Source: an uncultured Leptospira sp.
GTDB taxonomy: Bacteria > Spirochaetota > UBA4802 > JAGODF01
Direction: 5' to 3'
DNA length: 64,000 nucleotides
Assembly: GCA_964502925.1 (NCBI GenBank)
Contig: CAZCYH010000008.1
Location: 4,185-68,184, forward strand
The translations under genes and the position numbers were made by a program. Below the pieces are notes generated by a model that had not been told where the DNA came from, made no database searches, and was given only the letters and a program-made list of their open reading frames with translations. This document shows positions 90 to 21,835 of this stretch, piece after piece; positions within the stretch are counted from its first letter, which is position 1, and the number at the start of each line of letters is the position of its first letter.

Positions 90-2339
90 GTGCAACATGA
101 GGTGAGAGGGAATTTCATGAAAGCGTTTTATCTTATTGCGGAAAAAATCAGCTATACCTTTGCCGTGGCCTTTTTCACTATTTTTGGTGGCTGGATGGGG
201 GCGGTGTTCGGATATTACCTCGGCACCTCCTACACGCTCATTTATTACGATATAATAACTTCCGATGTATTGCGATGGCTGCCGCTTTGCGTTCTCATCC
301 CCACATTGCTTCATTATACACATTATGGTATTCTTACACCAATAAAAATCCCCGCTCTCCAGAAACCCCTGCGCGTCATCAACCGCAATATTCAGGGCGA
401 TAAAATGAGAGAAAACCTATCCGATCAGGAACTCAAGGAGCTCTATCACGCGTTCTGCGATCTTCCGCTGTGGAATGCGCTTGCTGCGGGTTCCTATGGC
501 ACGATGTGTGGGATTGTTCTCATGGGATTTTTCTATCTGGATCATACGCTGGCGGGGACGTTTACGCCGGTACTCATGAAGGTGCTTATGAAGATGGGCT
601 TGATTGCGGTGGCGATTGTAATAATTCTCTACAGCATGTCGACCTATCTCATTACGGAAATCATCACAAGCAGGGAGCGCGCGCTCTGTTTCAACGAGCT
701 TTTCAAACGGCAGATCATCCAGAGGCCGAGGGTTCTGGTAAACCTGCGGGTGAAGTTTTCTTTCTTCGTCGTCCTTTTAGTTATTGCGCTTCTTACGTTT
801 GCGGCACTGACACAAAAGAGCATTTTTTACGGCGAATATGATATTTTTGCTTCGATAATTTATATCATCGTATCGGTGCTCGCGGGGATATTCCTCATGT
901 TTTTCAATACCCGTTCAATCTTGCAGATTTTACGAGAGATGGGCCGTGTGGCCGGCGCGATTTCTTCAGGGGGTGAGGCTGAATTCCGTTTGCATTCCCT
1001 GGATACCGAATTTTCGAATATCGAATACTCTGTGCTTGAAATGTCAAAGGAAATTTTCGATTTTAGACGGAATCTCGAACAGCAGGTGGAGCAGCGCACG
1101 CTTGAACTTCAGAATGTGCTTACCGACCTCAAAGAAAGGGACGACCTCATACAAAAGCAGCTCGATATGGCCAGCATCATCCAGCGCAGCATTCTGCCCG
1201 GCCACATTGACGAATGGCTGGAAATAAAATTTTCCGTGCGCTACATTGCAATGGAAAAAATCGGCGGGGACTTCTACGATGTGTACCAGCTTCGCGACAA
1301 TAAAATGGGGCTCCTTGTGGCCGACGTTTCCGGTCACGGCATCCCCGCTGCGCTGGTGACCACAATGGCGAAGATTTCATTCGGGAACGCTTGCACAAAA
1401 TTCGATTCACCGCGCCGTATTTTCCAGGAGGTCAATCAGAATATTCTTGATCACGTGAAGACGCAGGATTACCTCACCGCTTTTTTTATAGTCATCGACG
1501 AGGAATACAATGTGACCTACGCGAATGCCAGCCACCAGAAGGCGCTTCTGGTGCGGACAGAGGAAGGGAAAATTGAACACCTCGATACCAATGGGCTCTT
1601 CATAGGTGCTATCGAAGAAGCGCGTGAAACATACGAGGAGAAGACAACGCGCCTCTCCTACGGCGATAAAATCATTCTCTATACGGACGGCATTCCCGAA
1701 GCGACGAATCTTTCACGGGAGGAATACTCCAACGAGCGTTTCGAAGAGGTGGTGCTTAAAAATAGGCATCTTTCGCTTGAGGATTTTACCAGTTTTATCA
1801 TTGAAGACGTGCAGAGATTCGTAGGCAACGCACCGGTCGAGGACGATATCACGCTGCTCGTGCTTGAATTGGTGCGCGATGAAGCGGTTGACCTCGTGAA
1901 ACAGTCAAGAAAGCTTGCGGATGACCAGAAAATATACGAAGCAATCGAAGTGCTTGAAAGGGGGCTTGCGGTGTTTAAGGACAATCGCAAAATCATCTAT
2001 AATCTCGCGAAATATTATTTCAAGGTGAACAATTACGGAAAGACGGTGGAATACACCGGCCATTATCTGAAGCAGGACAAGAAAAACAAATACGCGTATT
2101 ATTTGGGCGGCGCGGCGTTTTATCAGATGTTCGACTACAAGAACGCGGCTGATTTTTTGGAAAATGCCGTGCGCATTGATCCCAATTTCGTAAATGCGCA
2201 TCTTGCACTTGGGATGGTATATAAAAAGAAAGGGGATCTCGGTGAGGCACTCAGGTCATTTGAACGGGTGCTCGCACTCGAGCCCGACAATAGAATCGCG
2301 CAGTACGAAGCTGGAATGCTTCGGAAGAAAGCGAAATGA
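90..2339 (+). CDS. Membrane-anchored PP2C/SpoIIE-family Ser/Thr phosphatase (RsbU-like) with C-terminal TPR repeats
   Basis: 749-aa ORF. The N-terminal ~330 aa contain several long hydrophobic segments (polytopic membrane sensor). This is followed by a coiled-coil/HAMP-like segment. The PP2C/SpoIIE core shows the hallmark GGDFYDV...LLVADVSGHGIPAALVTT...YTDGIPEA motifs. The C-terminal ~130 aa are TPR-like (AAFYQMFDYKNAADFLENAVRIDPNFVNAHLALGMVYKKKGDLGEALRSFERVLALEP). An alternative start at ATG 117 (MKAFY...) is possible. Confidence 0.8.
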   Translation: MQHEVRGNFMKAFYLIAEKISYTFAVAFFTIFGGWMGAVFGYYLGTSYTLIYYDIITSDVLRWLPLCVLIPTLLHYTHYGILTPIKIPALQKPLRVINRNIQGDKMRENLSDQELKELYHAFCDLPLWNALAAGSYGTMCGIVLMGFFYLDHTLAGTFTPVLMKVLMKMGLIAVAIVIILYSMSTYLITEIITSRERALCFNELFKRQIIQRPRVLVNLRVKFSFFVVLLVIALLTFAALTQKSIFYGEYDIFASIIYIIVSVLAGIFLMFFNTRSILQILREMGRVAGAISSGGEAEFRLHSLDTEFSNIEYSVLEMSKEIFDFRRNLEQQVEQRTLELQNVLTDLKERDDLIQKQLDMASIIQRSILPGHIDEWLEIKFSVRYIAMEKIGGDFYDVYQLRDNKMGLLVADVSGHGIPAALVTTMAKISFGNACTKFDSPRRIFQEVNQNILDHVKTQDYLTAFFIVIDEEYNVTYANASHQKALLVRTEEGKIEHLDTNGLFIGAIEEARETYEEKTTRLSYGDKIILYTDGIPEATNLSREEYSNERFEEVVLKNRHLSLEDFTSFIIEDVQRFVGNAPVEDDITLLVLELVRDEAVDLVKQSRKLADDQKIYEAIEVLERGLAVFKDNRKIIYNLAKYYFKVNNYGKTVEYTGHYLKQDKKNKYAYYLGGAAFYQMFDYKNAADFLENAVRIDPNFVNAHLALGMVYKKKGDLGEALRSFERVLALEPDNRIAQYEAGMLRKKAK

Positions 2340-2412
2340 TCTTTACTACGTGGATGGGTGGTATTTGTTGAGCGGTTTTGCATCGCAGTTTTTCGCGCAT
2401 ATACGCACGCGG

Positions 2413-3216
2413 TTGATTATTGTATGTAGCACATTTCTATTCGCATATCGCCGCCTTTTTTATCGATATTTCCCGATTGCCGTTTTTATTGCGCTTTCCC
2501 TTGCGCCTGCCTCATCTCAGGATGAGCGGAAAATCGAACTTACCGCGCAGGAAATGATTGCACGCGCCGATCGGGTGCTCGATTATCCGCAGGGCATCAT
2601 CCGGGGGCGGCTCATGCACATCATGCCAACGGGCAAGACCTATAAGGTCGATATCACCGGATATATCGATAAATCCGATTATCTTTTTTCTTTCAGCACT
2701 GCGGATCGCGGAGAACAGCTAAAAGTGCTTTTCAACTTCGGCGGTGAAGAAATCTGGGTCTATAATATGCTGTCCACGAAGCTTTTCCATAAAACGGGAA
2801 TCGATAAGTACGAGCCAGTTGTCGCGACGAATTTTTCATTCATCGATTTTTCAAACGCGGATTTGCAGAGCAACTATACCGCAAAAATAGCAGGCACCGC
2901 GGTAATAAAGGAACAGGAAACCTACCGCCTCTCGCTGACCCCGATTTTTCGAGGCGGGGCGTACGGCAATCTGACGGTGTATGTATCGAAGGGTACGTAT
3001 TTCCCGCTGCGAATTGATTATCACGATATTGACGGCGTGATTTTCAAAACTCTTTCAATTGTCGAGGTTGCAAAGGTAGGCTCAAGAAATTTTCCTGTGC
3101 GCTACGATATGCTCGATATCCGTAAAGGCACGCTGACCATGCTCACTTTTCACGGATTTGAGGAAAATATAAAATTCGACAAAAAAATATTTTTTCATCA
3201 GACGCTGGGGAAATAG
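2413..3216 (+). CDS. LolA-like outer-membrane lipoprotein-sorting family protein (putative); start codon uncertain
   Basis: The track ORF 2194-3216 overlaps the end of the upstream gene, so a later start is needed. A TTG at 2413 precedes a signal-peptide-like segment (RRLFYRYFPIAVFIALSLAPASSQ). The mature part has the LolA-like/DUF-type 'sorting protein' look (ARADRVLDYPQG..., beta-rich, about 250 aa). The family assignment is from pattern memory only. Confidence 0.5.
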   Translation: MIIVCSTFLFAYRRLFYRYFPIAVFIALSLAPASSQDERKIELTAQEMIARADRVLDYPQGIIRGRLMHIMPTGKTYKVDITGYIDKSDYLFSFSTADRGEQLKVLFNFGGEEIWVYNMLSTKLFHKTGIDKYEPVVATNFSFIDFSNADLQSNYTAKIAGTAVIKEQETYRLSLTPIFRGGAYGNLTVYVSKGTYFPLRIDYHDIDGVIFKTLSIVEVAKVGSRNFPVRYDMLDIRKGTLTMLTFHGFEENIKFDKKIFFHQTLGK

Positions 3217-3218
3217 CG

Positions 3219-3947
3219 ATGCCGCAGTTTTTTGTTACCGTGCCATCTGGAGAAACGCGTTGCCGCATCGAAGGTCCGGATTTTGACCATCTGATGAAGG
3301 TCCGCCGCGTACGCGCCGGCGATGAAGTAACCCTGAGAAATTCCGATGGATCGCTCCTTCGCGGCAGGGTGATGGAAATATTTGACAGCTCGATGGCCAT
3401 CGAGATACTTGACCGAAAGGAGGCGGATGATCGCGTTTGCGCTTTCACTCTCGGGGTCGGTATTCTTAAAGGATGGAAATTCGATCTTGTCATTCAGAAA
3501 GCGGTTGAAATTGGAGTTACCACGATCGTTCCTTTGGTTACGGAACGTTCCGTGCCCCATATTCAAGGGAAAGAAGATAAAAAACTTGCGCGATGGACTA
3601 AAATTGCGCGGGAAGCTTCGAAGCAGTCTTTTCGTTTGCAGATTCCGGGTATCGCGATGCCGTGCGATTTTCATACGTTTATTGCGAGCGCACGGGCTGG
3701 AGATAAATTCATCGCGCATCCGCATGATGATGCGGCCGAGTTGAAAGCGTTGATGAAAACGACCGACCGCTCCGATAAAATCACACTCGTAATTGGACCG
3801 GAGGGCGGGTTTTCTGAAAAGGAATTGGATGCCGCAGTTAGGGCAGGATTTAAAGCGTTCAGGGTTGGCACGAACTGCATGCGAGCGGAAACCGCGGCGA
3901 TTGTGCTTCCTGCGATCTTCATGTACGAATGGAGTGGATATGTGTAA
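3219..3947 (+). CDS. rsmE: 16S rRNA (uracil1498-N3)-methyltransferase RsmE
   Basis: 242 aa. N-terminal PUA-like segment (MPQFFV...GDEVTLRNSDG), then a SPOUT core with typical RsmE blocks (GILKGWKFDLVIQKAVEIGVTTIVPLVTERSV; LVIGPEGGFSEKE). The end overlaps thiS by 8 nt. Confidence 0.85.
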   Translation: MPQFFVTVPSGETRCRIEGPDFDHLMKVRRVRAGDEVTLRNSDGSLLRGRVMEIFDSSMAIEILDRKEADDRVCAFTLGVGILKGWKFDLVIQKAVEIGVTTIVPLVTERSVPHIQGKEDKKLARWTKIAREASKQSFRLQIPGIAMPCDFHTFIASARAGDKFIAHPHDDAAELKALMKTTDRSDKITLVIGPEGGFSEKELDAAVRAGFKAFRVGTNCMRAETAAIVLPAIFMYEWSGYV

Positions 3948-4140
3948 AATAACCGTCAATGGAAGAGAAATCGTATTTTATAAAAAAACAGTCAGCGATC
4001 TCATCAATCAGTATAAGATGGATCCGAAAAAAATCGTTGTGGAACGCAATGGCGAAATCGTGCACCGCGAAGCCTATAGCGCAACAGAACTCAAAGAGGG
4101 CGATGTGATTGAAATTGCCCGTTTTGTGGGCGGAGGATGA
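3940..4140 (+). CDS. thiS: Sulfur-carrier protein ThiS
   Basis: 66 aa, MCKITVNGREI...IEIARFVGGG, ending in the diagnostic Gly-Gly. The in-frame ATG at 3940 lies inside the longer track ORF 3793-4140. It sits immediately upstream of thiE. Confidence 0.75.
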   Translation: MCKITVNGREIVFYKKTVSDLINQYKMDPKKIVVERNGEIVHREAYSATELKEGDVIEIARFVGGG

Positions 4141-4149
4141 TGCGCGCGG

Positions 4150-5214
4150 ATGATTAAGGCAATGGATGAACTGCATGCCGCAATTGATGCAAACTTCAAC
4201 CGCTCGATGGAAGGCCTGCGGGTGTGCGAAGATGTGTGCCGCTTTGTTCTGCACGATGAAATTCTTTCCACGCGGGCGAAGGAATATCGGCATGTGCTGG
4301 CAGAGCTTTCATCTCTGTGGATGAAAATAGATCTGCTTTCCGCAAGGGATATTGCCACTGACCCGATTAAGTTTGTGCACCTGGAAGAAACAACGCAGAA
4401 GGGAAATGATAATCCGATTGAAGTGCTCTTTCTTCGAAATATCCGCCGCGCGATTGAAGCCGTTCGCTCAATCGAAGAATGCGCACGAATCGATAATAAA
4501 GATCATGGCAATTTTCAATCGCTGCGCTTTCAGCTCTACGCCTTTGAGGCGGAAGTGGTCGATGCGATAACCCGAAAGCATATCCAGCGGAAATTTCATA
4601 ATGCTCTTTATGCGATCTTAGAACCCACCTTTGCCGGCGAAGATCTGCGCGCTGCTGCCGCTGCGCTCATCGAAGGCGGCGCGCGCGTCATCCAGCTTCG
4701 AATGAAGCATGCGCCGACAAAGGAGATAATGGAGCATGCCCGCATCATCGGTCCTATCTGCAAAAAAAAAGGAGTGGTGTTCATCATCAACGACAGGCCT
4801 GACATCGCCCGCTGCGTCGATGCGGACGGCGTGCACGTGGGCCAGGATGATATGCCGGTTGCGGATGCGCGAAGGATTGTAGGCGTGGGTAAGATTGTGG
4901 GGAAATCAACGCATTCCCTTAAACAGGCGCGCGAGGCGCAAAAGGAATTTCCCGATTATATTGCCATCGGGCCAGTGTTCGACACCGCGAGCAAGGATGG
5001 GAGCATGCTGCGCGGAATCGGAATAGATGCGGTGCGGATGGTGGCGCACGAATCGAATGTGCCGGTGGTGGCGATTGGAGGAATAACACCCGATGTCGTG
5101 GATGCGCTGAAAGATGCGGGAAGCACGTGCCCGGCAGTGATGTCTGCCCTTTTCAGTGGCGATGTCGTTCGCAATGCTCGCGAGTTTACCGCAAAACTAT
5201 CAGAAAATACGTAA
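4150..5214 (+). CDS. thiE: Thiamine-phosphate synthase ThiE with an uncharacterised ~150-aa N-terminal extension
   Basis: The C-terminal ~205 aa align block by block with ThiE (VIQLRMKH...FIINDRPDIARCVDADGVHVGQDDMP...IGPVFDTASK...VVAIGGITPDVV). The first ~150 aa (MIKAMDELHAAIDANFNRSMEGLRVCEDVCRF...) match nothing I can name. Confidence 0.8.
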   Translation: MIKAMDELHAAIDANFNRSMEGLRVCEDVCRFVLHDEILSTRAKEYRHVLAELSSLWMKIDLLSARDIATDPIKFVHLEETTQKGNDNPIEVLFLRNIRRAIEAVRSIEECARIDNKDHGNFQSLRFQLYAFEAEVVDAITRKHIQRKFHNALYAILEPTFAGEDLRAAAAALIEGGARVIQLRMKHAPTKEIMEHARIIGPICKKKGVVFIINDRPDIARCVDADGVHVGQDDMPVADARRIVGVGKIVGKSTHSLKQAREAQKEFPDYIAIGPVFDTASKDGSMLRGIGIDAVRMVAHESNVPVVAIGGITPDVVDALKDAGSTCPAVMSALFSGDVVRNAREFTAKLSENT

Positions 5215-5216
5215 TT

Positions 5217-5486
5217 ATGAGCAATGGCCTTGATGAGAGATTATCCCGATTGAGAAGCGAAGTGGCATTCCGACGCGCCTTCTGGTATGATGTCCGCTCG
5301 AAAATTCGCCTGCGAAAAAATGAATTGCTCACAATGGGATTTGAGAAATCTGTGGTTCGTAAGGATCGCGAATATAAGCGATTGCAAAAACAAAGGAAAT
5401 GCCTTTCAAAGGAGATCCGCCACCTTGAACAGAAGATCAACAGGACGATCGCGCGGCAGGAGAAAAAAGACAGCAACAAGGAATAG
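5217..5486 (+). CDS. Hypothetical small basic coiled-coil protein (89 aa)
   Basis: ATG at 5217, 2 nt after the thiE stop, with an open frame to 5486. The product is Lys/Arg/Glu-rich (…KDREYKRLQKQRKCLSKEIRHLEQKINRTIARQEKK…). No clear SD and no recognisable domain. It could be a real small gene or read-through noise. Confidence 0.3.
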   Translation: MSNGLDERLSRLRSEVAFRRAFWYDVRSKIRLRKNELLTMGFEKSVVRKDREYKRLQKQRKCLSKEIRHLEQKINRTIARQEKKDSNKE

Positions 5487-5532
5487 CGCGAAAAGGGATA
5501 CACGCGCCGAAATAATCTATCCGGCATACTGC

Positions 5533-6780
5533 ATGCCCGATGGTTCCGTGATTGAAGAGCCGCGCTATCGTCCCGCGTTTCGTACCGGTCGGTCAATAGT
5601 TCCGGTGGACCAAAACGAGCTTATTCCGCTTCCTTTCGGGAGCGTTCTTTTTTCTCTTCCGGGTCGTTTCCCGATATTTTACAATACGCGGGGCGAAGAA
5701 GTTATTGTCAAAACAGCATCCGGTTCGTCGCAGGAAATTTCCGCAGCCTCGGCGTTTGTAAGTTCCGGATATCTTCGCACCTATTTGCCCGCCTACGTGA
5801 AATCCGATTCCGCGCCGCCGCTTTCGCTGTGGGCTTATGCAGGTCTGGTAATTAAAAATGGCACATTCTGGGTTCCTGCGCTTCGAATTGATGAAGATCC
5901 CCGGTCGGATGCGCAGCTTCATCAAAACGATGACGAACTTCACCGAAACATAAAGGAAATGAAATTTTTCCTTAAGAGAAACAGGCTTGCATCGCAGCTT
6001 GCCCATTGTGCCACCGAATACCGCTGCCTCTGCGCCCGGAATTTTTTTCTGAGCCGTTTTGAAGCGCCCGTGCCGACAAGCCCTGCGTGCAATGCGAGAT
6101 GTATTGGCTGTTTATCGAAGCAGGAGGAAAGCGGGTTTTGCTCATCACAGGAGAGGCTCTCGTTTGCTCCAGCGCCGGAAGAAATTGCTGAGGTGATTCT
6201 CTATCATTTCGAACGTGTCGATGCCGCAGTGGCGAGCTTCGGCCAGGGCTGTGAAGGCGAGCCGCTTTTGCGCGGAAAAGACCTTGCGCGCGCTATTGCA
6301 CTGGTGCGTGAGAAGACGCCGCGTGGGACCATCAACCTGAATACCAATGGTTCCAGGCCAGACGAAGTGAAGCGCCTCATCGATGCGGGACTCGATTCAA
6401 TCCGCATTAGCCTGAACTCGCCCACGGAGGAATATTATACACGCTATTTCCGGCCTCAAGGGTATTCTTATAGCGATGTCATTCGTTCAATTGATATTGC
6501 ACTCGATGCGGGGATTTTCGTGTCGATCAATCTTTTCTTTTTGCCCGGGTTTACGGACATGGAATCGGAAGTGGATTCATTATTTGCGTTTCTAAAAAAG
6601 TTTCCCGTGTCGATGATACAGGCGCGCAATCTCAACATCGATCCCGACCTGTATCTTGATTCCATTGGATTTTGTGAATCAAAACCATTGGGTATCCGTT
6701 CGCATCTGTCGATGCTTTCTGCCGGTTTTCCGAAAATGAAAATTGGATACTACAATCCGCCAAAGGAGAGATTTCAATGA
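5533..6780 (+). CDS. Radical SAM protein with an uncharacterised ~170-aa N-terminal domain
   Basis: CX3CX2C motif CNARCIGC at nt 6088-6111. A typical radical-SAM core follows (GCEGEPLL, TINLNTNGSRPDEVKRLIDAGLDSIRISLNSP). The start is chosen at ATG 5533. The upstream part of the track ORF (from 5287) overlaps the 5217 ORF and reads as low-complexity R/K junk. The stop overlaps the cooC start (ATGA at 6777-6780). Confidence 0.7.
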   Translation: MPDGSVIEEPRYRPAFRTGRSIVPVDQNELIPLPFGSVLFSLPGRFPIFYNTRGEEVIVKTASGSSQEISAASAFVSSGYLRTYLPAYVKSDSAPPLSLWAYAGLVIKNGTFWVPALRIDEDPRSDAQLHQNDDELHRNIKEMKFFLKRNRLASQLAHCATEYRCLCARNFFLSRFEAPVPTSPACNARCIGCLSKQEESGFCSSQERLSFAPAPEEIAEVILYHFERVDAAVASFGQGCEGEPLLRGKDLARAIALVREKTPRGTINLNTNGSRPDEVKRLIDAGLDSIRISLNSPTEEYYTRYFRPQGYSYSDVIRSIDIALDAGIFVSINLFFLPGFTDMESEVDSLFAFLKKFPVSMIQARNLNIDPDLYLDSIGFCESKPLGIRSHLSMLSAGFPKMKIGYYNPPKERFQ

Positions 6781-7550
6781 AAATCGCAATCACGGGCAAA
6801 GGCGGCGTTGGCAAGACAAGCATTGCCGCGGCAATCGCGCTCATTCTGGCAGAACGCGGGCACAGGGTTCTGGCGGTCGATGCCGATCCCGACACGAACC
6901 TTGCCTCAGCGCTCGGCATTCCCTATGCTGAGCATGGCGGGATACGAACCATTGCGCTGGAAAAAGAGCTTATTGAAGAGCGAACAGGTGCACGCGCTTC
7001 TGGTGGGATCTTTAAGCTGAACCCTGAGGTTTCCGATATCGCCGAAAAATTTGCCTTCCGCTATCGAAACGTTGATCTTGTGGTGCTCGGTGCCGTGCGT
7101 ACCGGAGGTGGTGGATGCGCATGCCCCGAAAGCGCGTTTCTGCGTTCTTTAGTGCAGGAACTGGTTTTGAGAAGGGATGAACATCTCGTGCTCGATATGG
7201 AGGCCGGCATTGAGCATCTTGGAAGGGCTACCGCACGGGGCGTGGATGCATGTATCGCGGTTGCGGAACCCGGCGCGCGGTCCATCGCAACAGTCCGGCG
7301 CATCGCGCAGATGGCAGAACAGATCGGCATCATGCGCACATACGTTATTATCAATGCTATCAGAAACGCCGGGGACGCGGGATTTTTAAAAGCGGGACTT
7401 TCCGATTTTGAGATAGTAGGGGAAATACCGTATCATGAAGCGATACGCGACAATGACAGAGATGGCCGGGCGGTGATCGATGAGTTGCCCGATGAAATTC
7501 GATCATATTTTGACGCGCTTGTCGAACGACTTTTAGTAAAATTTTCTTGA
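6777..7550 (+). CDS. cooC: CooC/AcsF-family Ni-insertion ATPase (CODH/ACS maturation), copy 1
   Basis: 257 aa. Deviant Walker A ITGKGGVGKTS, then DADPDTNL, and a C-x-C metal motif (GGGCACPES). Translationally coupled to the upstream radical SAM gene. Confidence 0.9.
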   Translation: MKIAITGKGGVGKTSIAAAIALILAERGHRVLAVDADPDTNLASALGIPYAEHGGIRTIALEKELIEERTGARASGGIFKLNPEVSDIAEKFAFRYRNVDLVVLGAVRTGGGGCACPESAFLRSLVQELVLRRDEHLVLDMEAGIEHLGRATARGVDACIAVAEPGARSIATVRRIAQMAEQIGIMRTYVIINAIRNAGDAGFLKAGLSDFEIVGEIPYHEAIRDNDRDGRAVIDELPDEIRSYFDALVERLLVKFS

Positions 7551-7689
7551 CCGATAATCCCTTTTCTTTAGCGTGAAAACCCCGGACGCGCCCGCAGCCT
7601 CAGTCCGACCGCACGAGTTCGGTGAGCAAAACTACATGCGTGTAATCACTATAATGCTGTCCGATGAATTATCCGGCAAGGAGATCGAT

Positions 7690-8742
7690 ATGAAAGAAAG
7701 ATTTTTAGCTACTGCCATTGGAAGCTTTCCCCACGATGATGCAAAAAAAGCGGTGGATATTATCCTTGAAACAATGCCCGAAGCGCCGGTATGGCCGCAG
7801 CTTCCGAAAATCGGACTCACCGAGCAGATGGAGATTCAGTATTCGGAAGGCATGCCGAGCGCGATTATCGATTCCGAAAAGGGACGAATGTATTTCGATA
7901 CCTCCGGCGATTACTCTGAAGAGCTTGCTGCTTTTTATGAGTCGTATATGAATGCGGTCGAAGGTGACGGCGATCTCTCGGCTTTTGTGATATCGCCGAA
8001 ATATTCAAGGGGTATTTATGAACTTAATTCCCGGCTTTCGCAGGATGGAAAAAAATATTCCTATGTGAAGGTGCATACCACCGGACCCTGTTCATTTTCG
8101 CTTACCGTGGTTGATGAACAGAAGCGAGCGATTTACTATAATGAAGAATTTCGCGATGTGGTGGTGAAAGCGCTTTCTATGAAGTGCCGATGGCAAATTC
8201 GAACATTCGCCCCTCTGGCGGAAAAAATCATCTGCTTCATTGATGAGCCCATCCTTTCGGCATTCGGTTCATCGACCTATATTTCTGTCAAACGCGACGA
8301 TGTGGTATCGCTCATCCGTGAAATGGTAGATGCCATTCACGCCGAAGGGGGAATTGCCGGTGTGCACTGCTGCGGCAATACCGAGTGGCCAATTCTCATC
8401 GAAGCCGGCGTGGATATCCTGAATTTAGACGCCTATCTGTATGGCGACACAATTGCGCTGTATCCCGAAGCGGTGAACAACTTTATTGCGCGCGGCGGAA
8501 CGATTGCCTGGGGAATTGTTCCAACCTCGGTGAGCATTCGAAATGAAAGCGCAGCTTCTCTGGAAAAGCGATTTGATGAGCTCGTGGCGCATCTTTCAAA
8601 GAAAAGCGGTATCGCTTCCGATGTGCTCTATGAACGCGCGATAATCACACCGTCATGCGGGACGGGCTCTATGAGCGTTGATGATGCCGAGCGGGTCTTT
8701 CACACGTTACATGAGCTTTCGAACGCGCTAAAAAAGCGTTAA
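7690..8742 (+). CDS. MetE-C-terminal-like (UroD/MetE superfamily, 'core-MetE'-like) zinc methyltransferase
   Basis: 350 aa from ATG 7690 (AAGGAG RBS 7 nt upstream; the track ORF starts earlier at 7573). Blocks resemble the cobalamin-independent methionine synthase catalytic barrel: CFIDEPIL (cf. IQIDEPA), GVHCCGN (His-x-Cys Zn ligands), and TPSCGTGS (distal Cys ligand). Confidence 0.7.
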   Translation: MKERFLATAIGSFPHDDAKKAVDIILETMPEAPVWPQLPKIGLTEQMEIQYSEGMPSAIIDSEKGRMYFDTSGDYSEELAAFYESYMNAVEGDGDLSAFVISPKYSRGIYELNSRLSQDGKKYSYVKVHTTGPCSFSLTVVDEQKRAIYYNEEFRDVVVKALSMKCRWQIRTFAPLAEKIICFIDEPILSAFGSSTYISVKRDDVVSLIREMVDAIHAEGGIAGVHCCGNTEWPILIEAGVDILNLDAYLYGDTIALYPEAVNNFIARGGTIAWGIVPTSVSIRNESAASLEKRFDELVAHLSKKSGIASDVLYERAIITPSCGTGSMSVDDAERVFHTLHELSNALKKR

Positions 8743-8753
8743 GGCGTAAGATC

Positions 8754-9503
8754 ATGTCCTATACCATCGCGATAACCGGCAAGGGCGGTACGGGCAAGAC
8801 GACCATCGCTGCGCTCATCGTTGTGGCAATGACACGGGCGGGCAAACGTCCGGTGCTGGCAGTGGATGCCGATCCCAATGCCTGTCTCGATGTGGCGCTG
8901 GGTGTTGAAGCGAAAAACACGGTGGGGCAATTGCGCGAGGATGCGCGAATACTTGCATCGGAGCATCCCGATATTTCAAAGCGCGAGCTTTTAGAGTTGA
9001 AGATTTCCGAAAGCCTAGTGGAAGGTGAGGATTTTGATCTCATTGCGATGGGGCGACCGGAAGGGCCGGGATGCTATTGCTACGCGAACAATGTGCTGCG
9101 CGAGGTACTGAAAGAAGTTTCTGATAATTATCCATATGTAGTTATCGACAATGAAGCGGGGCTTGAAAATCTCTCGCGCAGAATTGTGCGCCGCGTGGAC
9201 GCGCTTTTAGTGGTGGGGGAGCCGTCGCGAAACGGTATCGCGACGCTGCATCGGATACAGGCGCTTGCCGCAGAAATGAATATTGAATATGGGAAGCTCA
9301 TTGCGGTGATAAACCGGGTATATGAGGTAAAAAAATCCTATGATGACGTGAAGAAGGAAATGGGAGCGGACGGAATTGTTCTTCTGCCTCATGATGATGA
9401 AATACGAATGTTGAACGAAGCGGGAAGAAGTTTTTTTTCGCTACCGGAAAAAAATGCGGTATATCAAAAGGTGCGCGATGAGATCGTGGCGCCAGTAAAA
9501 TAA
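8754..9503 (+). CDS. cooC: CooC/AcsF-family Ni-insertion ATPase, copy 2
   Basis: 249 aa. ITGKGGTGKTT Walker A, DADPNACLD, and a C-x-C motif (GPGCYCYAN). It is paralogous to copy 1. Two paralogs are the usual pattern where one serves CODH and one serves ACS. Confidence 0.9.
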   Translation: MSYTIAITGKGGTGKTTIAALIVVAMTRAGKRPVLAVDADPNACLDVALGVEAKNTVGQLREDARILASEHPDISKRELLELKISESLVEGEDFDLIAMGRPEGPGCYCYANNVLREVLKEVSDNYPYVVIDNEAGLENLSRRIVRRVDALLVVGEPSRNGIATLHRIQALAAEMNIEYGKLIAVINRVYEVKKSYDDVKKEMGADGIVLLPHDDEIRMLNEAGRSFFSLPEKNAVYQKVRDEIVAPVK

Positions 9504-9522
9504 CTTCAAGAAGCGTGAAGGC

Positions 9523-11472
9523 ATGGAAAAGGAAAAGAAAAGAGCACAAGACCGCGCAGTCGATTCTGCATCAATAGCCATTATCGAGAAAGCGGAGAAG
9601 GATAATGTTCGCGTGAGCTTTTTCCGCATGGATGAGCAGGGAGCCCAGTGTGGCTTCGGGACAAGCGGCGTGTGCTGCCGCATCTGCCACATGGGGCCGT
9701 GCCGCATCAGCGCGAAAGCAAAATTCGGCGTCTGCGGTGCCGATGCGGATACCATCGTCGCGCGCAATTTTCTTCGCGAGGTGGCGGCAGGATGCGCCGC
9801 ACATTCAGATCACGCGCGGCATCTGGTACTGCTTCTGAAAAAGGTCGCGCAGGGGAAAGCGGGCAATTATGCGCTCAAAGATCGCGATGCGCTGCATCGC
9901 GTGGCGAAAAAATACGGCGTAGCCATTGAGCAGAGAAATGACGCCGAAATTGCCTCTGAACTTGCCGATGTCCTTCTTGGGGAATTCACCGCGCAGGAGG
10001 AACATTTAAAAACGCTGAAACTTGCGCCGGAAAAACGCCAGAGGTTGTGGGAAAAACTGGAAGTTGAGCCGCATGGAGTGGACCGGATGATTGTGGAATC
10101 GCTTCACCGCACGCACATGGGCGTCGATCACGACTACGCGCATATTCTGATGCACGCGTTTCGCGCGTCACTATCCGACGGGTGGGGCGGCTCGCGCATC
10201 GCGAGCCAGGTTTCCGACATCCTCTTCGGTACGCCAGCGCCCGTGCGCTCGATGGCGAATTTAGGGGTGCTTGGAGAGCGTACAGTGAACGTGGTGGTGC
10301 ACGGGCATGAGCCCGCGCTTTCCGAAATGCTTGCGGCTGCTTCAAAAGATCCCGAAATCATTGAGGCGGCAAAAAAGGTGGGGGCGGAAGGCATCACGCT
10401 TGCGGGAATCTGCTGTACCGCCAATGAAATTCTCATGCGCCACGGGATTCCCGTCGCGGGAAATTTTCTTCAACAGGAGCTGGCAGTCGTCACAGGTGTG
10501 GTTGAGGCGCTCATCATCGATGTGCAATGCTGTATGCCGGGACTGGCTGAGGTGGCGGCATCATACCATACCGAAATCATTTCTACCAGCGATATTGCGC
10601 ACACAGTGGGAGCAGTTTCCGTCCAGTTCACCGCAGAAGAAGCCTATGATGGCGCAAAACGCATTCTTCTACGCGCTATAGAAAATTTTGTGCGCAGAGA
10701 TTCATCGAAAGTGTTCATACCGAAAGAAGCGAAACCCCTTGTCGCGGGCTTCAGCGTGGAAGCCATCCGCTACATGCTCGGCGGACGATTCCGTGCTTCG
10801 TATCGGCCACTCAACGACGCCATCATGCAGGGGAGAATTCGGGGCGTGGCGGGCATTGTGGGATGCAATAATCCCAAGCAGAAACTGGATGAGTACATCG
10901 ATACACTCACCGAGGAACTTCTTAAGCGAAATGTGCTGGTGCTCAAAACCGGATGCGCGGCAATCGCCTCGGCGAAGGCGGGCTATCTCACGCCGGAGAC
11001 TGCGCTGCGGCAGGCAGGGGCGGGGCTGCGCGAAGTCTGCGAAGCAATCGGCATGCCGCCGGTTTTGCATATGGGAAGCTGTGTGGACAATTCGCGCATT
11101 TTAGAGGCTGCCACTGAAATCGTATTTGAAGGCGGTTTGGGCGATGATCTGTCGATGATTCCCGCGGTTGGAGTGGCGCCGGAATGGATGAGTGAGAAGG
11201 CCATTGCCATCGCCATGTATTTCGTGGCATCGGGAATTGATGTGATACTCGGCCATCCCTTTTATATTTCCGGCTCAAAGAACGTGATGCGCTTTTTGAA
11301 TGAAGAATCGAAAAATATTTTTGGTGCGTCATTTCATGTGTACGATGATCCATGTGAGGCGGCGGATGCGATTATGGAAATCATTGAGCGGAAGCGCGAC
11401 GCGCTCGGCATCAACCAGCGCACGGAACGGAAACTTTTCGATATGAAGGACAGGAGGCAGCTCAGTGTCTAA
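9523..11472 (+). CDS. cooS: Ni-dependent carbon monoxide dehydrogenase catalytic subunit (CooS/AcsA)
   Basis: 649 aa. N-terminal D/B-cluster cysteine motifs (QCGFGTSGVCCRICHMGPCRI...FGVCGAD). Hybrid-cluster-fold blocks run throughout (VHGHEPALSEM, TLAGICCTANE, HMGSCVDNSR). Confidence 0.95.
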   Translation: MEKEKKRAQDRAVDSASIAIIEKAEKDNVRVSFFRMDEQGAQCGFGTSGVCCRICHMGPCRISAKAKFGVCGADADTIVARNFLREVAAGCAAHSDHARHLVLLLKKVAQGKAGNYALKDRDALHRVAKKYGVAIEQRNDAEIASELADVLLGEFTAQEEHLKTLKLAPEKRQRLWEKLEVEPHGVDRMIVESLHRTHMGVDHDYAHILMHAFRASLSDGWGGSRIASQVSDILFGTPAPVRSMANLGVLGERTVNVVVHGHEPALSEMLAAASKDPEIIEAAKKVGAEGITLAGICCTANEILMRHGIPVAGNFLQQELAVVTGVVEALIIDVQCCMPGLAEVAASYHTEIISTSDIAHTVGAVSVQFTAEEAYDGAKRILLRAIENFVRRDSSKVFIPKEAKPLVAGFSVEAIRYMLGGRFRASYRPLNDAIMQGRIRGVAGIVGCNNPKQKLDEYIDTLTEELLKRNVLVLKTGCAAIASAKAGYLTPETALRQAGAGLREVCEAIGMPPVLHMGSCVDNSRILEAATEIVFEGGLGDDLSMIPAVGVAPEWMSEKAIAIAMYFVASGIDVILGHPFYISGSKNVMRFLNEESKNIFGASFHVYDDPCEAADAIMEIIERKRDALGINQRTERKLFDMKDRRQLSV

Positions 11473-14400
11473 GATCATCAGCAGTGCGGCCATTGATGGT
11501 GCCATCGCGTGGGTTGCGCGCGCGGAAAAGAAACTGGATGAAGTTATCCTGACTAAGGGAGAAGATGCTGCGGTTGCTTTCCCTGATACAGCCTACTATC
11601 TTCCCATTATTTATTCGTTTACCGGGAAAAAAGTTGCGACGCTTGCCCACTGCCGAGAGGTGTTGCGGGAGGCGAAAGAACTCTTGCCGCAAAGGCCTTC
11701 AGAACATGTGTGGCTGCCGTATCTGGGAAACGCGCTTGATGCGGGCGTGGCAGCGCTTTTTGCCTGCGAAATAATCGAAGCGTGCAAATATCTCATTGGA
11801 CCAAATCCGGTTGAAGGCATCTGGCTCGGTGCCGCGAACGATATCATCATGCGGGAGCGGGGAGTGGAATTCGTGGACGGGACCGCGCCTGGATTTGCAG
11901 CGGTAACCGGCGCAGCACCCTCGAATGACATTGCGGTGAAGATTGCGCGCGAACTTCAGGAAAAAAATCTCTATGTGTTTATGGCCGGCTCCACAAATGG
12001 AAGACAATTTGCAGAGCAGCTTGCCGAAGAAGGGGTGCAGCTCGGATGGGAGACGCGGCTTGTTCCCTATGGCAGGGATGTGTCGGCGCTGGTGTATGCG
12101 CTCGGTTTTGCAAACCGTGCAGCGCTTTCGTTTGGAGGAGTCAGGCCCGGAGATTATGCGGGCAATCTGCGCTATAATAAAAACCGCATCATGGCCTTTG
12201 TCCTTGCCTTTGATGAAGTCGATGCCGATAAATACGCTCTTGCTGCAGGTGCCATCAACTACGGCTTTCCGGTGATTGCCGATACTGCCATCCCGCAGAT
12301 TCTTCCTACTGGCGTGTGCACCTACGAGCACGTGGTGTCATCGGTTCCCTATGAGAAAATAGTGGAGCGCGCGCTTGAAGTGCGCGGCTGCAAGGTGAAA
12401 ATCACCAGAGTGCCCATTCCCGTTCCATACGGCCCCGCTTTCGAAGGCGAGCGGATACGCAAACAGGACACGCATGCGGAATTCGGCGGGAATATCACCA
12501 CCGCATTTGAATTCGTCACCATGGTGGGTATGGACGAAATCGAAGATGGCGAAATTGAAATCATCGGCAAAGACATCGACGAAATAGAAGCTGGGAGCGC
12601 ACTGCCGCTCGGCATATGGGTTGAGGTGGCGGGAAGAAAGATGCAGCCGGATTTTGAATCAATCTTAGAGCGGCAAATCCATCATCTCATCAACGGCGCA
12701 GAAGGCATCTGGCACATGGGGCAGCGCGATATCGTATGGACGCGCGTCTCGAAAAGCGGATTTGCCAGAGGCCTGCGGTTGCGGCATTATGGCGAAATTC
12801 TTCATGCGCAGTTTCTTTCCAATTATCCTGCCATTGTCGATAAAGTCAAAGTGACGCTCATCACCGATGCAGAAGAAGCGGAGCGGCGCGTTGCAATTGC
12901 CCGGAAGGTATATCGGGAGCGCAATCAGCGCCTTGCTTCAATGACCGATGAATCCGTCGATACATTTTATTCGTGTCTTCTCTGCCAGAGCTTTGCGCCG
13001 AACCACGTATGCGTCATCACCCCTGAACGGCTGGGCCTCTGCGGTGCGTACAACTGGCTCGACGGAAAAGCGGCATACGAAATCGACGAAACCGGGCCGA
13101 ATCAGCCGGTGAAGAAAGGCACGGTCATCGATCCGGGCCGGGGAATTTTCACCGGCGTCGATGAGTACGTCTATTCCAATTCGCATAAAAAAGTCGAAAG
13201 TTTCAGCATGTATTCCATCATGCACAATCCCATGACCAGCTGCGGCTGTTTTGAAGTGATTCTTGCCTACGTGCCCGAGTGCAATGGTGTGATGGCAGTC
13301 AACCGCGAGTACACCGGCGATACGCCCGTTGGAATGACCTTCTCCACGCTTGCGGGCAATGTGGGCGGGGGCATGCAGACGCCGGGCTTCATGGGCTGCG
13401 GCAAGGTGTATCTCACATCGAAAAAATTTGTTTATGCAGAGGGAGGGCATAAACGCCTGGTGTGGATGACCACTGATCTGAAGCAGATGGTGGGCGATGA
13501 CATGAAAAAGCTTTTCGCAGAATTGGGGCTTGATGGCCTTTTTGAGAAAATTGCTGATGAAACCATATCGGCGAACCCCGCAGAAATACGACAATTCATG
13601 GAAAAAAATGAGCATCCCGCGCTCGAAATGGACGATATGGCTCTCTATGCCGAAATGGAGAGCACGCCCCGGGAGACAATTGTCCCTGAGAAAGAAGAAG
13701 CGGGTGAGATAAAAAAAGCGCAAGAGGTGCATGATGAAACGGTGCATCCAGTAAGCGAAACGCGCACGATGCCGCACTCTGTGGATGTGGAGGCACTGAA
13801 GAGAGAACTCTTTGCCGAGCTTCGTGATGAAATGAAGAAAGCCATCACGAAGGAAGTGGTATCGGAGATCATCAGCGTTTTAGAGGAAAAGTTTCTTGGC
13901 GCAAAACGGCCTGCTTCACCGGGTAATGTTTCCGTGGAAGAAAAAAGAGATCAGGTGCCTTTAAGCGAATCCGGGCATCCGCATCCGAAACCGTCTGAAA
14001 GAATTTCCGCGATTCAATCCTTTCCGATTCCAAAAGAATCCTTCAGCGGCGCGGTGCACCGTGTGAAAATTGGTGCCACGAAAGCGGAAGGCGGCACGCG
14101 GGGACGAACGTATGAAATCGGCGGCGCGAATACCATGCCCTTCCATCACTGGGAAGGCATTATGCCGAACCGTCCGCTTATGGCGATGGAAGTCTTCGAC
14201 CGGGTTGGAGAGAAATATCCACAGGCACTCAAAGACGTCTGGGGTGAATTATTATTAGATCCGGTGCGCATGGCAAAGGCGTGCGTGGAAAAATATGGTG
14301 CGGATCTCATAAGCGTGCGTCTTGATGGCACGCATCCCGAGCGCGGAAATTATTCTCCCGAAGATTCGCTTAAGCTGGTGAAATCGGTTCTTGCGGCAGT

Positions 14401-14980
14401 GGATGTGCCGCTTGTCATTACGGGGCACAATCACTATGAAAAGATGAATGCGGTGATGAAGGAAATCGCCGCGGGGTGTGCTGGTGAAAATCTGCTTTTG
14501 AACTGGGCAGAGCAGGACAATTATCGTGTGATAGCAGGCGCCGCGATAGCGTACGGGCATACGGTGGTGGCGCAAAGCCCCATTGATGTGAATATTTCCA
14601 AGCAGCTCAACATTTTGCTTACGGGAATGGACGTGCCTATTAATCGCATCGTCGTCGATCCGCTCACCGGCGCGATGGGTTACGGTATCGAATACACCTA
14701 TTCCGTAATGGAGCGCATTCGCCTCACGGGCCTCGGCGGCGACGCAATGCTGCTTTCGCCCATGATTGTGTCCCCTGGACAGGAATGCGCCCGCATCAAG
14801 GAACTGCGCGCCGAAGAGATAGAGTTTCCTTCCTGGGGCGATCTGAAAAAGCGCGCGGCGCTGTGGGAACTTTCCACCGCCACGGCATTGCTCTATGCCG
14901 GGGCTGATATCCTCATCATGTATCATCCTGAAGCCGCGGGTGCTTTGAAAAAATCAATCATGCAGCTTATGGAGAAGTAA
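11465..14980 (+). CDS. acsB: Acetyl-CoA synthase (AcsB/CdhC, A-cluster subunit) fused to a C-terminal CFeSP small-subunit-like (AcsD/CdhD-like) TIM-barrel domain
   Basis: 1171 aa. GTG start overlaps the cooS stop. The AcsB part (about aa 1-720) is bacterial-type with a long N-terminal domain. It carries the [4Fe4S] ligand block CLLCQSFAPNHVCVITPERLGLCGA and the proximal-Ni Cys-Gly-Cys motif MTSCGCFE. An Asp/Glu/Lys-rich linker of about 130 aa follows. The last ~310 aa (…LISVRLDGTHPERGNY…VPLVITGHNHYEKMNAVMKEIAAG…VVDPLTGAMGYGIEYTYSVMERIR…) resemble the CdhD/AcsD corrinoid-protein TIM barrel. Confidence 0.9.
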   Translation: MSKIISSAAIDGAIAWVARAEKKLDEVILTKGEDAAVAFPDTAYYLPIIYSFTGKKVATLAHCREVLREAKELLPQRPSEHVWLPYLGNALDAGVAALFACEIIEACKYLIGPNPVEGIWLGAANDIIMRERGVEFVDGTAPGFAAVTGAAPSNDIAVKIARELQEKNLYVFMAGSTNGRQFAEQLAEEGVQLGWETRLVPYGRDVSALVYALGFANRAALSFGGVRPGDYAGNLRYNKNRIMAFVLAFDEVDADKYALAAGAINYGFPVIADTAIPQILPTGVCTYEHVVSSVPYEKIVERALEVRGCKVKITRVPIPVPYGPAFEGERIRKQDTHAEFGGNITTAFEFVTMVGMDEIEDGEIEIIGKDIDEIEAGSALPLGIWVEVAGRKMQPDFESILERQIHHLINGAEGIWHMGQRDIVWTRVSKSGFARGLRLRHYGEILHAQFLSNYPAIVDKVKVTLITDAEEAERRVAIARKVYRERNQRLASMTDESVDTFYSCLLCQSFAPNHVCVITPERLGLCGAYNWLDGKAAYEIDETGPNQPVKKGTVIDPGRGIFTGVDEYVYSNSHKKVESFSMYSIMHNPMTSCGCFEVILAYVPECNGVMAVNREYTGDTPVGMTFSTLAGNVGGGMQTPGFMGCGKVYLTSKKFVYAEGGHKRLVWMTTDLKQMVGDDMKKLFAELGLDGLFEKIADETISANPAEIRQFMEKNEHPALEMDDMALYAEMESTPRETIVPEKEEAGEIKKAQEVHDETVHPVSETRTMPHSVDVEALKRELFAELRDEMKKAITKEVVSEIISVLEEKFLGAKRPASPGNVSVEEKRDQVPLSESGHPHPKPSERISAIQSFPIPKESFSGAVHRVKIGATKAEGGTRGRTYEIGGANTMPFHHWEGIMPNRPLMAMEVFDRVGEKYPQALKDVWGELLLDPVRMAKACVEKYGADLISVRLDGTHPERGNYSPEDSLKLVKSVLAAVDVPLVITGHNHYEKMNAVMKEIAAGCAGENLLLNWAEQDNYRVIAGAAIAYGHTVVAQSPIDVNISKQLNILLTGMDVPINRIVVDPLTGAMGYGIEYTYSVMERIRLTGLGGDAMLLSPMIVSPGQECARIKELRAEEIEFPSWGDLKKRAALWELSTATALLYAGADILIMYHPEAAGALKKSIMQLMEK

Positions 14981-15076: not shown

Positions 15077-15991
15077 ATGCTTCACGCATATAAAATAGCA
15101 AACGGTGCGATAGTCCCAGCGAACGAGGAATCGGCGCCGATACTGGTGTATATCAACCCCACTATTGAAGAAAAGGATCTTCTGGTGGGAAATTACAATA
15201 TCGATTCGCACACCCTGCAGTCCGCGCTCGACCCCGATGAGCTTTCCCGGCTGGAGTTTGAGCCCGATCATGCCGCCGTCATTCTCAAACGCCCGCAGAA
15301 TTATTCTGCTGCCGATGAATTCCTTTTTAAAGTTTCATCAATCGGCATTTTCTGGTACCGGGAGCGCGTCATCATTCTCCTCATGGAAGATATACAGCTT
15401 TTCGACGGCAAAATTTTCTCGAAAGTGAATTCAATCGGCGATCTGGTGCTGAAAATTATATTGCGCATTATCTATCATTATATCGATCACCTGAAAGTTA
15501 TCAACATGATTTCCGATTCGCTCGAGCAGAAAATCAATACCTCCATGCGCAATAAATATCTCATCAATCTTTTCACGCTCGAAAAAAGTTTGGTCTATTA
15601 TCTCAATGCCATCAATTCGAATGCGACAGTGATAGAGCGCATAAAAAACAATCGCGCGCGCCTTGCGCTTGAAAATGAGCAGATTGAAATGCTGGACGAT
15701 ATCATCATCGAAAATACGCAGTGCCAGAAACAGGCGGAAATCTATTCGAACATTCTTGCCGGCCTCATGGACGCGCGCGTCTCAATCGTCAGCAACAATC
15801 TCAATATCCTCATGAAAACCTTAAACCTCATCACCATCGCCATCATGGTGCCTACCTTCGTGGTGAGTGCGTTTTCCATGAACGTGGCGATTCCCATGCA
15901 GCACTATCCGCATGCCTTCTGGATCATCATGGCGCTTGCGCTTATATCTGTGCTGACGTTTATGTTCTTCTGGCGCCTCAAAAAGTGGTGA
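15077..15991 (+). CDS. CorA-family divalent-metal (Mg/Co/Ni) transporter with a non-canonical SMN motif in place of GMN
   Basis: 304 aa. A soluble N-terminal CorA-like domain, then two C-terminal TM helices separated by FSMNVAIP at the position of the canonical YGMNF. Basic C-terminus (WRLKKW). Confidence 0.7.
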   Translation: MLHAYKIANGAIVPANEESAPILVYINPTIEEKDLLVGNYNIDSHTLQSALDPDELSRLEFEPDHAAVILKRPQNYSAADEFLFKVSSIGIFWYRERVIILLMEDIQLFDGKIFSKVNSIGDLVLKIILRIIYHYIDHLKVINMISDSLEQKINTSMRNKYLINLFTLEKSLVYYLNAINSNATVIERIKNNRARLALENEQIEMLDDIIIENTQCQKQAEIYSNILAGLMDARVSIVSNNLNILMKTLNLITIAIMVPTFVVSAFSMNVAIPMQHYPHAFWIIMALALISVLTFMFFWRLKKW

Positions 15992-16010
15992 GCGTATTTT
16001 TTTGTACGCG

Positions 16011-17102
16011 TCACAGGCTTTTTTGCGGGTGCCGTAAAATGTGCAGTGCGGTCGCTTTGAATGAAGCGGTTACCGTGCTTTTTTCTTGTAATCCGAGCTC
16101 GGAAAGTGAGTGCGGCGTGATATATGCAATGAGCTTAAATCCGCAATCGAGCGAAACGCGCACATGCGTGCCTGCATGAGTGATGCTGCATACCTTTGCC
16201 TCGAATGAATTGCGCATGCTGCTAGATGCATTTTTATCTTTTGAAATAACGATATGCTCGGGGCGTATTCCGAGTGTTACCATTTTGCCTTTATGCGCTG
16301 CGCCTGAAACTTCAATTGCTCTGCCGGAAACCTCGACAGTAAAACCGCCATTAAAAACATCAACGACGGTTCCGGAAAGAATTGTTTCAACACCCATGAA
16401 CGATGCAATGAATTCATCGGCGGGATTGCTGATGATGTCAGCCGGAAAGCCTTCTTGAATCACGCGGCCATTTCTCAGCACCACAATCCTGTCGGCCAGA
16501 CGAAGCGTTTCGTCGCGATCGTGGCTGATAAATATGACACCGCATTGGACATGGCGCAGCATTTTTTCGAAATCATCAAGCATGGAATCGCGGGCCAATG
16601 TATCGAGCGCTGAAAACGGTTCGTCCATGAGCAGGAGTTTTGGCTTTAGTATCAGGGAACGCGCGAGGGATACACGGCGCGCTTCTCCTGCAGAAAGAGT
16701 GTGTGAGCGGCGATGAAGCAGATGCGCAATGCCGAACATATCGGCGAACTCATGTACTTTTCGTTTGATTTCACTGGCAGGCAATTTTCGAATTTTCAAA
16801 CCGAGTGCGATGTTCTCACCTGCCGTTGTGTTCAAAAGCAAAGGTTCCTGAAAGAGCATGGTGATGGATTTTCGACGATCGTACAGAGCGCGGATATCAT
16901 GAATTGGAATTTCGTCGAATATGAGATCAAGCTCGCGTACTTTAATAAGGCCAGCAAGTGCCAGAAGCAGTGTAGTTTTTCCCGCGCCATTGTGCCCGAT
17001 AATTGCGATGCTTTCGCCGACGTGAAGGCGGATATTATTGACCGAAAGTGTGAATTGGCCAATTTGCGCCGTTATTTTTTGAATATCGAGCAGCGATTTC
17101 AT
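16011..17102 (-). CDS. tupC: ABC transporter ATP-binding subunit with C-terminal TOBE/Mop domain (tungstate/molybdate type, TupC/ModC-like)
   Basis: 363 aa. Walker A GHNGAGKTT, signature LSAGEARRVSLARS, Walker B LLLMDEP. A C-terminal ~110-aa TOBE-like beta domain is present. Confidence 0.8.
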   Translation of the reverse strand: MKSLLDIQKITAQIGQFTLSVNNIRLHVGESIAIIGHNGAGKTTLLLALAGLIKVRELDLIFDEIPIHDIRALYDRRKSITMLFQEPLLLNTTAGENIALGLKIRKLPASEIKRKVHEFADMFGIAHLLHRRSHTLSAGEARRVSLARSLILKPKLLLMDEPFSALDTLARDSMLDDFEKMLRHVQCGVIFISHDRDETLRLADRIVVLRNGRVIQEGFPADIISNPADEFIASFMGVETILSGTVVDVFNGGFTVEVSGRAIEVSGAAHKGKMVTLGIRPEHIVISKDKNASSSMRNSFEAKVCSITHAGTHVRVSLDCGFKLIAYITPHSLSELGLQEKSTVTASFKATALHILRHPQKSL

Positions 17103-17104
17103 GG

Positions 17105-17803: not shown

Positions 17804-17805
17804 GG

Positions 17806-21830: not shown

Positions 21831-21835
21831 GATAA

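Follow-up and report, generated by a model that had tools for sequence, protein, structure and literature searches.

In our opinion the radical SAM gene whose stop codon overlaps cooC in the stretch of DNA analysed here (64,000 nucleotides, referred to as the window) encodes a stand-alone enzyme of a widespread, uncharacterised family, and it takes no part in CODH/ACS maturation. We put the probability of this reading at about 0.8. It is true that the gene stands directly upstream of cooC in at least five related genomes, and co-transcription of the two is plausible in this lineage. The comparative data nevertheless argue against a functional link.

Gene, start codon and domains

The maximal open reading frame of the gene on the forward strand runs from 5287 to 6780, with an ATG in frame at 5533. 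Both the preliminary description of this region, made from the sequence alone, and the database entry P0001 placed the start at that ATG, which gives a protein of 415 amino acids. We favour another start: most likely the gene begins at TTG 5425 and extends over 5425-6780 (+), with 451 amino acids, as comparison with relatives and a structure model both suggest. In an alignment of 40 homologs nearly all proteins start 5-35 residues ahead of the window's M5533, and the aligned homologs have in common a 'LAY.D' motif, the window counterpart of which, …IIYPAYC, lies directly ahead of ATG 5533. The nearest relatives (L082-L084) have a leucine at the position of ATG 5533; their genes start at the homologous TTG, and tcAAAGGAGAt precedes it. 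The window carries the same TTG at 5425, and a Shine-Dalgarno-like AAAGGAGA at 5408-5415 (+), 9 nt before this TTG, is kept in L082-L084. Furthermore, in an AlphaFold model of 5509-5916 the eight residues ahead of M5533 are predicted with confidence (block pLDDT 93) as the first β-strand. Hence the start at 5533 should probably be given up, and the database entry seems to place the start 36 codons off. The 451-aa form has about 220 amino acids ahead of the CX3CX2C motif. Residue numbers in this text (C159, C165, C186, C240 and so on) are counted from M5533.

A small ORF of 89 amino acids with a coiled coil and no Pfam family lies directly ahead of the radical SAM gene (5217-5486, +); its last 62 nt probably overlap the start of that gene. 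Homologs are found in the same position in L004 (4404-4916), L005, L081 (9700-9969), L082 (567-836), L086 (2185-2439) and L087. The protein has 84-89 amino acids in most relatives and about 170 in L004 and L005, and it carries the motif RKDREYK.L.K.KK.LSKEIRHLEQKINR.

By motif, profile and predicted fold the protein is a member of the radical SAM superfamily, and SAM cleavage is predicted for it. The preliminary description had read the CX3CX2C motif and a standard radical SAM core from the letters, and both stand. The motif, C-N-A-R-C-I-G-C at 6088-6111 (+), supplies the predicted ligands of the SAM-binding [4Fe-4S] cluster (C186, C190 and C193) and is 98% conserved among 138 homologs; the Pfam model Radical_SAM (PF04055) matches residues 181-344 with an E-value of 4.6e-21 and 76.2 bits (cutoff 29.5). 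The full-length structure model is confident (pLDDT 89.5, pTM 0.89), and the partial (β/α)6 TIM-barrel fold of the superfamily is present in it.

According to this model, residues 1 to about 120 are all-β, 127-172 are helical and 177-415 make up the α/β core. On the DNA this corresponds to a β-rich, family-specific N-terminal domain of about 11-12 strands (5509-5907, +), to a helical linker (5911-6048, +), recognised by the secondary structure of the model, with C159 (6007-6009) and C165 (6025-6027), and to the partial TIM-barrel core (6058-6777, +), where C240 (6250-6252) is located within the strand GQGCEGEP, the 'GGE' SAM-binding motif. Across 138 family members, whose identity to the window protein has a median of 40%, the only cysteines conserved to at least 98% are the three of CX3CX2C together with C159, C165 and C240. 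Conservation of C159 and C165 reaches 99%, and C167 shows none.

The N-terminal domain proper is about 125 amino acids long and is preceded by a short basic tail. The preliminary description had recognised no family in this part of the protein, and we agree: neither a sequence family nor a fold match was found for it, and the structure prediction that had been proposed there as a check yields a confident all-β domain with no known fold relative. A search with the N-terminal 183 residues among 1.8 billion representative proteins returned 310 clusters (counted at 50% identity) at E<=1e-3. Since the domain is N-terminal in every full-length match (about 400-460 aa), it seems, on this evidence, to exist only within this radical SAM family; the shorter matches are probably fragments. 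The N-terminal domain has a pI of about 10, and the core one of about 5.4. The basic tail is long in the window lineage, but its median length in the family is only 8 amino acids, and we therefore regard the tail as a weak hint of RNA binding.

Family size and classification

The family is a large one. With the window protein as query, 7,976 of 8,000 candidates scored at E<=1e-5, and the best 120 matches are 355-457 aa long, 59-100% identical to the query and cover 85-100% of it (at least 98% in all but two). Full-length members have about 430 amino acids, and identity between phyla is 40-45%. The family is present in at least 593 species-level genomes of a dozen or more phyla, with Spirochaetota, Desulfobacterota, Myxococcota, Bacteroidota, Planctomycetota, Omnitrophota, Elusimicrobiota, Acidobacteriota, Chloroflexota, NC10, KSB1 and Latescibacteria among the host groups.

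Subfamily classification, a further check proposed earlier, leads to no named family. NCBIfam and Pfam give generic core matches only, and every named subfamily tested scores below its curated cutoff. For the MoaA models TIGR02666 and TIGR02668 the scores are 53.7 against 284 and 47.2 against 325, with the alignment confined to the core; for NifB (TIGR01290) 16.7 against 343.65; for NrdG2 31.9 against 131. The models for AhbC, AhbD, NirJ, TYW1 and viperin all fall far short of their cutoffs, and none of the NCBIfam models for LipA, BioB, MiaB and ThiH is matched; Pfam gives no LipA family either. The match to the NCBIfam model TIGR04311, 'putative metalloenzyme maturase', is faint, with 23 bits where 400 are required. 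In the PDB, searches by sequence and by profile found only the cores of NifB, MoaA and BlsE, the best solved structures being NifB 6y1x (E 2.5e-5) and MoaA 1tv7/2fb2 (E 5e-5).

Some sources name the homologs PFL-AE or NrdG. We do not accept that this is a glycyl-radical activating enzyme: such enzymes have about 200-260 amino acids, against 415-451 and an additional N-terminal domain here, and the HMM score is below cutoff.

How does the protein compare with the better known enzymes? It shares with the MoaA/NifB branch the CX3CX2C motif in a 'CN.RC..C' context and the G.GEPLL strand. Unlike MoaA it has no C-terminal auxiliary-cluster cysteines, and unlike NifB it has no NifX-like or K-cluster motifs, so that the similarity to NifB is limited to the generic core; its N-terminal extension of about 170-210 amino acids is absent in both. 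The protein behaves like a generic core of the MoaA/NifB branch to which a private N-terminal module is joined. The likeness to LipA is of another kind and consists in extra invariant cysteines shortly ahead of CX3CX2C. However, neither the auxiliary motif CX4CX5C nor an HMM match of the LipA type was found. The arrangement here is C159-x5-C165 with a distant C240 in β2, a position which we take to be that seen in BioB; LipA lacks the N-terminal β-domain, and lipoylation genes are absent from the surroundings. Judged by its sequence, the family is a distinct radical SAM subfamily, marked by the unique N-terminal domain and by three extra invariant cysteines.

The CODH/ACS neighbourhood and rival explanations

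The junction with cooC is indeed as the preliminary description had it. The stop codon of the radical SAM gene (TGA, 6778-6780) and the start codon of cooC (ATG, 6777-6779) overlap in an ATGA at 6777-6780 (+), which is also present in L081-L084 and not in L085 or L086, and a Shine-Dalgarno sequence for cooC, AAAGGAGA, can be read at 6762-6769 (+). The neighbour gene (6777-7550, +) encodes a P-loop ATPase of 257 amino acids, of the CbiA/MinD type, with CbiA/ArsA/ParA matches; given its GKGGVGKT and C-A-C (CxC) motifs it is CooC-like, again as described before. It is followed on the same strand by an unclassified ORF of 350-389 amino acids without a Pfam family (7573-8742, +), a second cooC paralogue (8754-9503, +), cooS (9523-11472, +) and an acsB-acsD fusion of 1171 amino acids (11465-14980, +), in which CdhC and the ACS C-terminal domain are joined to an acsD/CdhD domain. 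The fusion gene overlaps cooS by 8 nt. The ORF between the cooC paralogues is conserved in the same position in L081-L086 and has a weak NCBIfam match to cobalamin-independent methionine synthase (E 1e-5); this MetE-like protein may be a methyltransferase-like component of a compact CODH/ACS module. Neither acsC nor acsE was seen in the examined parts of the 64-kb window, so that, compared with a classical Wood-Ljungdahl cluster, the module seems to be incomplete. The CODH/ACS genes are slightly richer in GC (0.52-0.56 against 0.47-0.50), a difference that is not decisive for horizontal transfer.

Beyond the module, at 15077-18681, there is a CorA-type transporter gene, as in L081 and L082, and then, on the opposite strand, an ABC transporter with TOBE domains together with a PBP_like_2 binding protein; the two look like a system of the molybdate/tungstate type. 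Further on, at 19654-22771 (-), there is a gene for a 390-aa protein resembling the RuBisCO large subunit (PF00016), in which IKDDHG stands in place of KDDE; next to it is a split transketolase, the N-terminal and the pyrimidine/C-terminal halves of which are separate genes.

The preliminary description took the overlap with cooC as a sign that the two genes are co-translated. How much does such an overlap mean in this genome? Upstream of the small ORF are genes for a LolA-like lipoprotein, rsmE (3219-3947), thiS (3940-4140) and thiD2-thiE (4150-5214), and from 2194 to 14980 the genes form one same-strand array with overlaps or tiny gaps throughout. The functionally unrelated rsmE, a 16S rRNA methyltransferase gene, and thiS overlap by 8 nt (3940-3947) and can serve as an internal control. 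Since the array is so tightly packed and unrelated genes overlap too, the 4-nt overlap between the radical SAM gene and cooC is weak evidence, and in this genome a functional link should not be deduced from overlapping genes alone. A scan for promoters and terminators gave counts at chance level.

Co-occurrence with cooC, cooS and acsB had also been proposed as a check, and within the neighbourhoods of homologs the outcome is negative. The window proteins were searched for around homologs at 80 loci from genomes, with 10 kb taken on either side, and at 80 from metagenomes, with 8 kb on either side. CooS, AcsB-AcsD, the MetE-like ORF and CooC2 are encoded at none of the 160 (0/80 genome, 0/80 metagenome), a count that refers to neighbourhoods of ±8-10 kb in host phyla many of which are anaerobes able to carry CODH elsewhere; for CooC1 there is one weak match (L023, 32% identity, 6 kb away). 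The homologs thus lack the conserved genomic association with cooS/acsB that would mark a maturation factor. Clustering of neighbour ORFs did not bring out any partner family in more than 16 of the 160 loci. The commonest neighbours (a PHP-domain protein at 16 loci, TyrS at 13, and Fur, a methyltransferase and a histidine kinase at 12 each) are all lineage-restricted, and Pfam finds Fur in 7 and PrmA in 4 of 75 genes immediately downstream, and EamA in 4 of 74 immediately upstream.

The closer relatives are also informative. At 83-84% identity (L081-L084) the CODH/ACS module lies downstream with the same 4-nt overlap as in the window. In L086 (74%) there is a gap of 170 nt between the radical SAM gene and the module, and in L085 (75%) an opposite-strand gene of 2.6 kb, encoding 865 amino acids, separates the radical SAM gene from cooC. 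In L087 (67%) and L003-L005 (59-62%) CODH genes are absent from the locus: asnC, 4HBT, dapA and dapB are downstream in L087 and an AsnC-type regulator in L003. The L087 genes were sought in the window for an insertion point, and no matches were found. These relatives at 59-67% identity do keep the upstream synteny of lolA-like gene, rsmE, thiS and small ORF, hence the radical SAM gene travels with the upstream block. Adjacency to CODH/ACS is confined to one sub-lineage with at least 74% identity (74-84%), and on these comparisons it seems to be due to a single juxtaposition.

The preliminary description suggested that the enzyme may be an accessory maturase or cofactor modifier of the C-cluster, the A-cluster or a corrinoid, co-translated with CooC. 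The ATGA overlap, shared with L081-L084, the presence of the module downstream in five related genomes and the faint TIGR04311 match would all be in keeping with this, but we consider it very improbable. Both L085 and L086 have an interrupted junction, the gene persists without the module in relatives at 59-67% identity, and CooS or AcsB is near none of the 160 homologous loci outside the sub-lineage. The similarity to NifB, with its score so far under the cutoff, concerns the generic core only. Moreover, family members with 40-45% identity are found in lineages labelled Bacteroidia, Chitinophagaceae, Myxococcota and Ktedonobacterales, in which CODH/ACS is not generally expected. As a result that would speak against a CODH role, the preliminary description named assignment to a well-known housekeeping family whose homologs never co-occur with CODH/ACS genes; the lack of co-occurrence in homolog neighbourhoods is what we find, whereas no named housekeeping family could be assigned. 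The published picture of CODH operons agrees with ours. A survey of 1,376 CODHs gives as recurrent neighbours CooC, CooT, CooJ, FeS proteins, genes of C1 pathways, regulators and transporters, and the term 'radical SAM' is not present in it (PMC13056359); nothing relevant came from searching the literature for radical SAM enzymes within CODH/ACS clusters. The CODH-ACS maturation machinery, as described in two papers (PMC6006190, PMC13056359), includes no radical SAM enzyme. With the set of CooC, CooT, CooJ and AcsF the window protein shares genomic adjacency and the 4-nt overlap only, in the window lineage alone, while its family is distributed independently of CODH/ACS neighbourhoods; by every tested criterion it is not a member of this set. 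A local variant, in which the enzyme was recruited into the CODH/ACS operon of this Spirochaetota lineage and aids Ni-Fe-S or corrinoid maturation, is less likely than a stand-alone enzyme, and we give it very little weight. If it were true, a radical SAM step would be added to Ni-Fe-S cluster assembly. Given that the comparative data argue against the link, the picture of CODH/ACS maturation remains unchanged.

Two further explanations start from the genes upstream, and we judge both to be improbable. The preliminary description had pointed to thiS-thiE, and one can imagine a ThiS-dependent sulfur insertion or thiamine enzyme, in which the thiocarboxylate feeds a cluster at C159/C165/C240 and the radical site inserts the sulfur. 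Indeed thiS is found 1-2 genes upstream in Spirochaetota relatives, even in those without thiE (L001, L004, L005), and of the three extra invariant cysteines two are N-terminal to CX3CX2C, like in LipA. But ThiS is adjacent only in Spirochaetota relatives. Outside this phylum the 160 loci contain 3 distant tblastn matches, two of them in opposite-strand thiS-thiE pairs, and small ORFs ending in GG within 4 kb at the 80 genome loci are ThiS-like in Spirochaetota only. Besides, thiS overlaps the unrelated rsmE as well, the LipA, BioB, MiaB and ThiH models are unmatched, and thiG, thiH and thiF were not found in the window. The small ORF invites a different thought, namely that the enzyme matures the small upstream protein, as in a RiPP-like or protein-modifying pair; this, too, has in our opinion hardly any chance of being correct. 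The small ORF does precede or overlap the radical SAM gene throughout the Spirochaetota relatives, and a different conserved ORF of 140 amino acids has the same position in Desulfobulbales. However, the two upstream proteins have no mutual BLASTP match at E<=0.01, neither is present at most of the 160 loci, and, because the enzyme is far more conserved than either of them, the fit to a co-evolving pair of enzyme and peptide is poor.

The Desulfobulbales loci have an arrangement of their own. The 140-aa protein (…KTIRAIDRKRERERR…) is encoded upstream of the radical SAM gene and a Fur-family regulator downstream (9528-9956 and 11388-11801 in L022; also in L031, L039, L048, L059, L066 and L077), and farther out follow tyrS and the gene for RNase Y, in opposite orientation.

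Possible chemistry and meaning of the family

If the protein is a stand-alone radical SAM enzyme, as we believe, the analogy with the superfamily suggests how it would work. The [4Fe-4S] cluster held by CX3CX2C would reductively cleave SAM to the 5'-deoxyadenosyl radical, which would then take a hydrogen atom from the substrate; the N-terminal domain, as the presumed substrate-recognition module, would bring that substrate into position. C159, C165 and C240 may bind an auxiliary Fe-S cluster, for which their LipA/BioB-like placement is suggestive, or they may be redox or H-atom relay residues. As to the locus, the enzyme gene belongs, in the window lineage, to a block of lolA-like gene, rsmE, thiS, in some cases thiE, and the small ORF; the compact module of cooC, the uncharacterised gene, cooC, cooS and acsB-acsD lies directly downstream only in this lineage, and the 4-nt overlap is, on this reading, a by-product of tight gene packing.

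What the substrate might be is more difficult to judge. Conservation over the full length across phyla (40-45% identity), taken together with the absence of a conserved gene partner, suggests a conserved cellular molecule. There are weak hints of a target in RNA or the translation apparatus, in which we place low confidence: the N-terminal domain is basic, and rsmE, prmA, tyrS, the RNase Y gene, rsmG/spoU-like genes and genes for PHP-domain proteins are among the neighbours, where they are recurrent yet lineage-restricted. Hence it is only as a tentative proposal, somewhat doubtful even to us, that we describe the family as an uncharacterised radical SAM class with a new-fold substrate domain, a three-cysteine auxiliary site and a conserved modification, possibly of RNA or the translation apparatus.

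Irrespective of the substrate, there remains a large and phylogenetically broad orphan subfamily of radical SAM enzymes, with three extra invariant cysteines and an N-terminal domain to which none of the solved folds is related. Work on enzyme discovery could reasonably take it up, yet it is one among many orphan radical SAM families.
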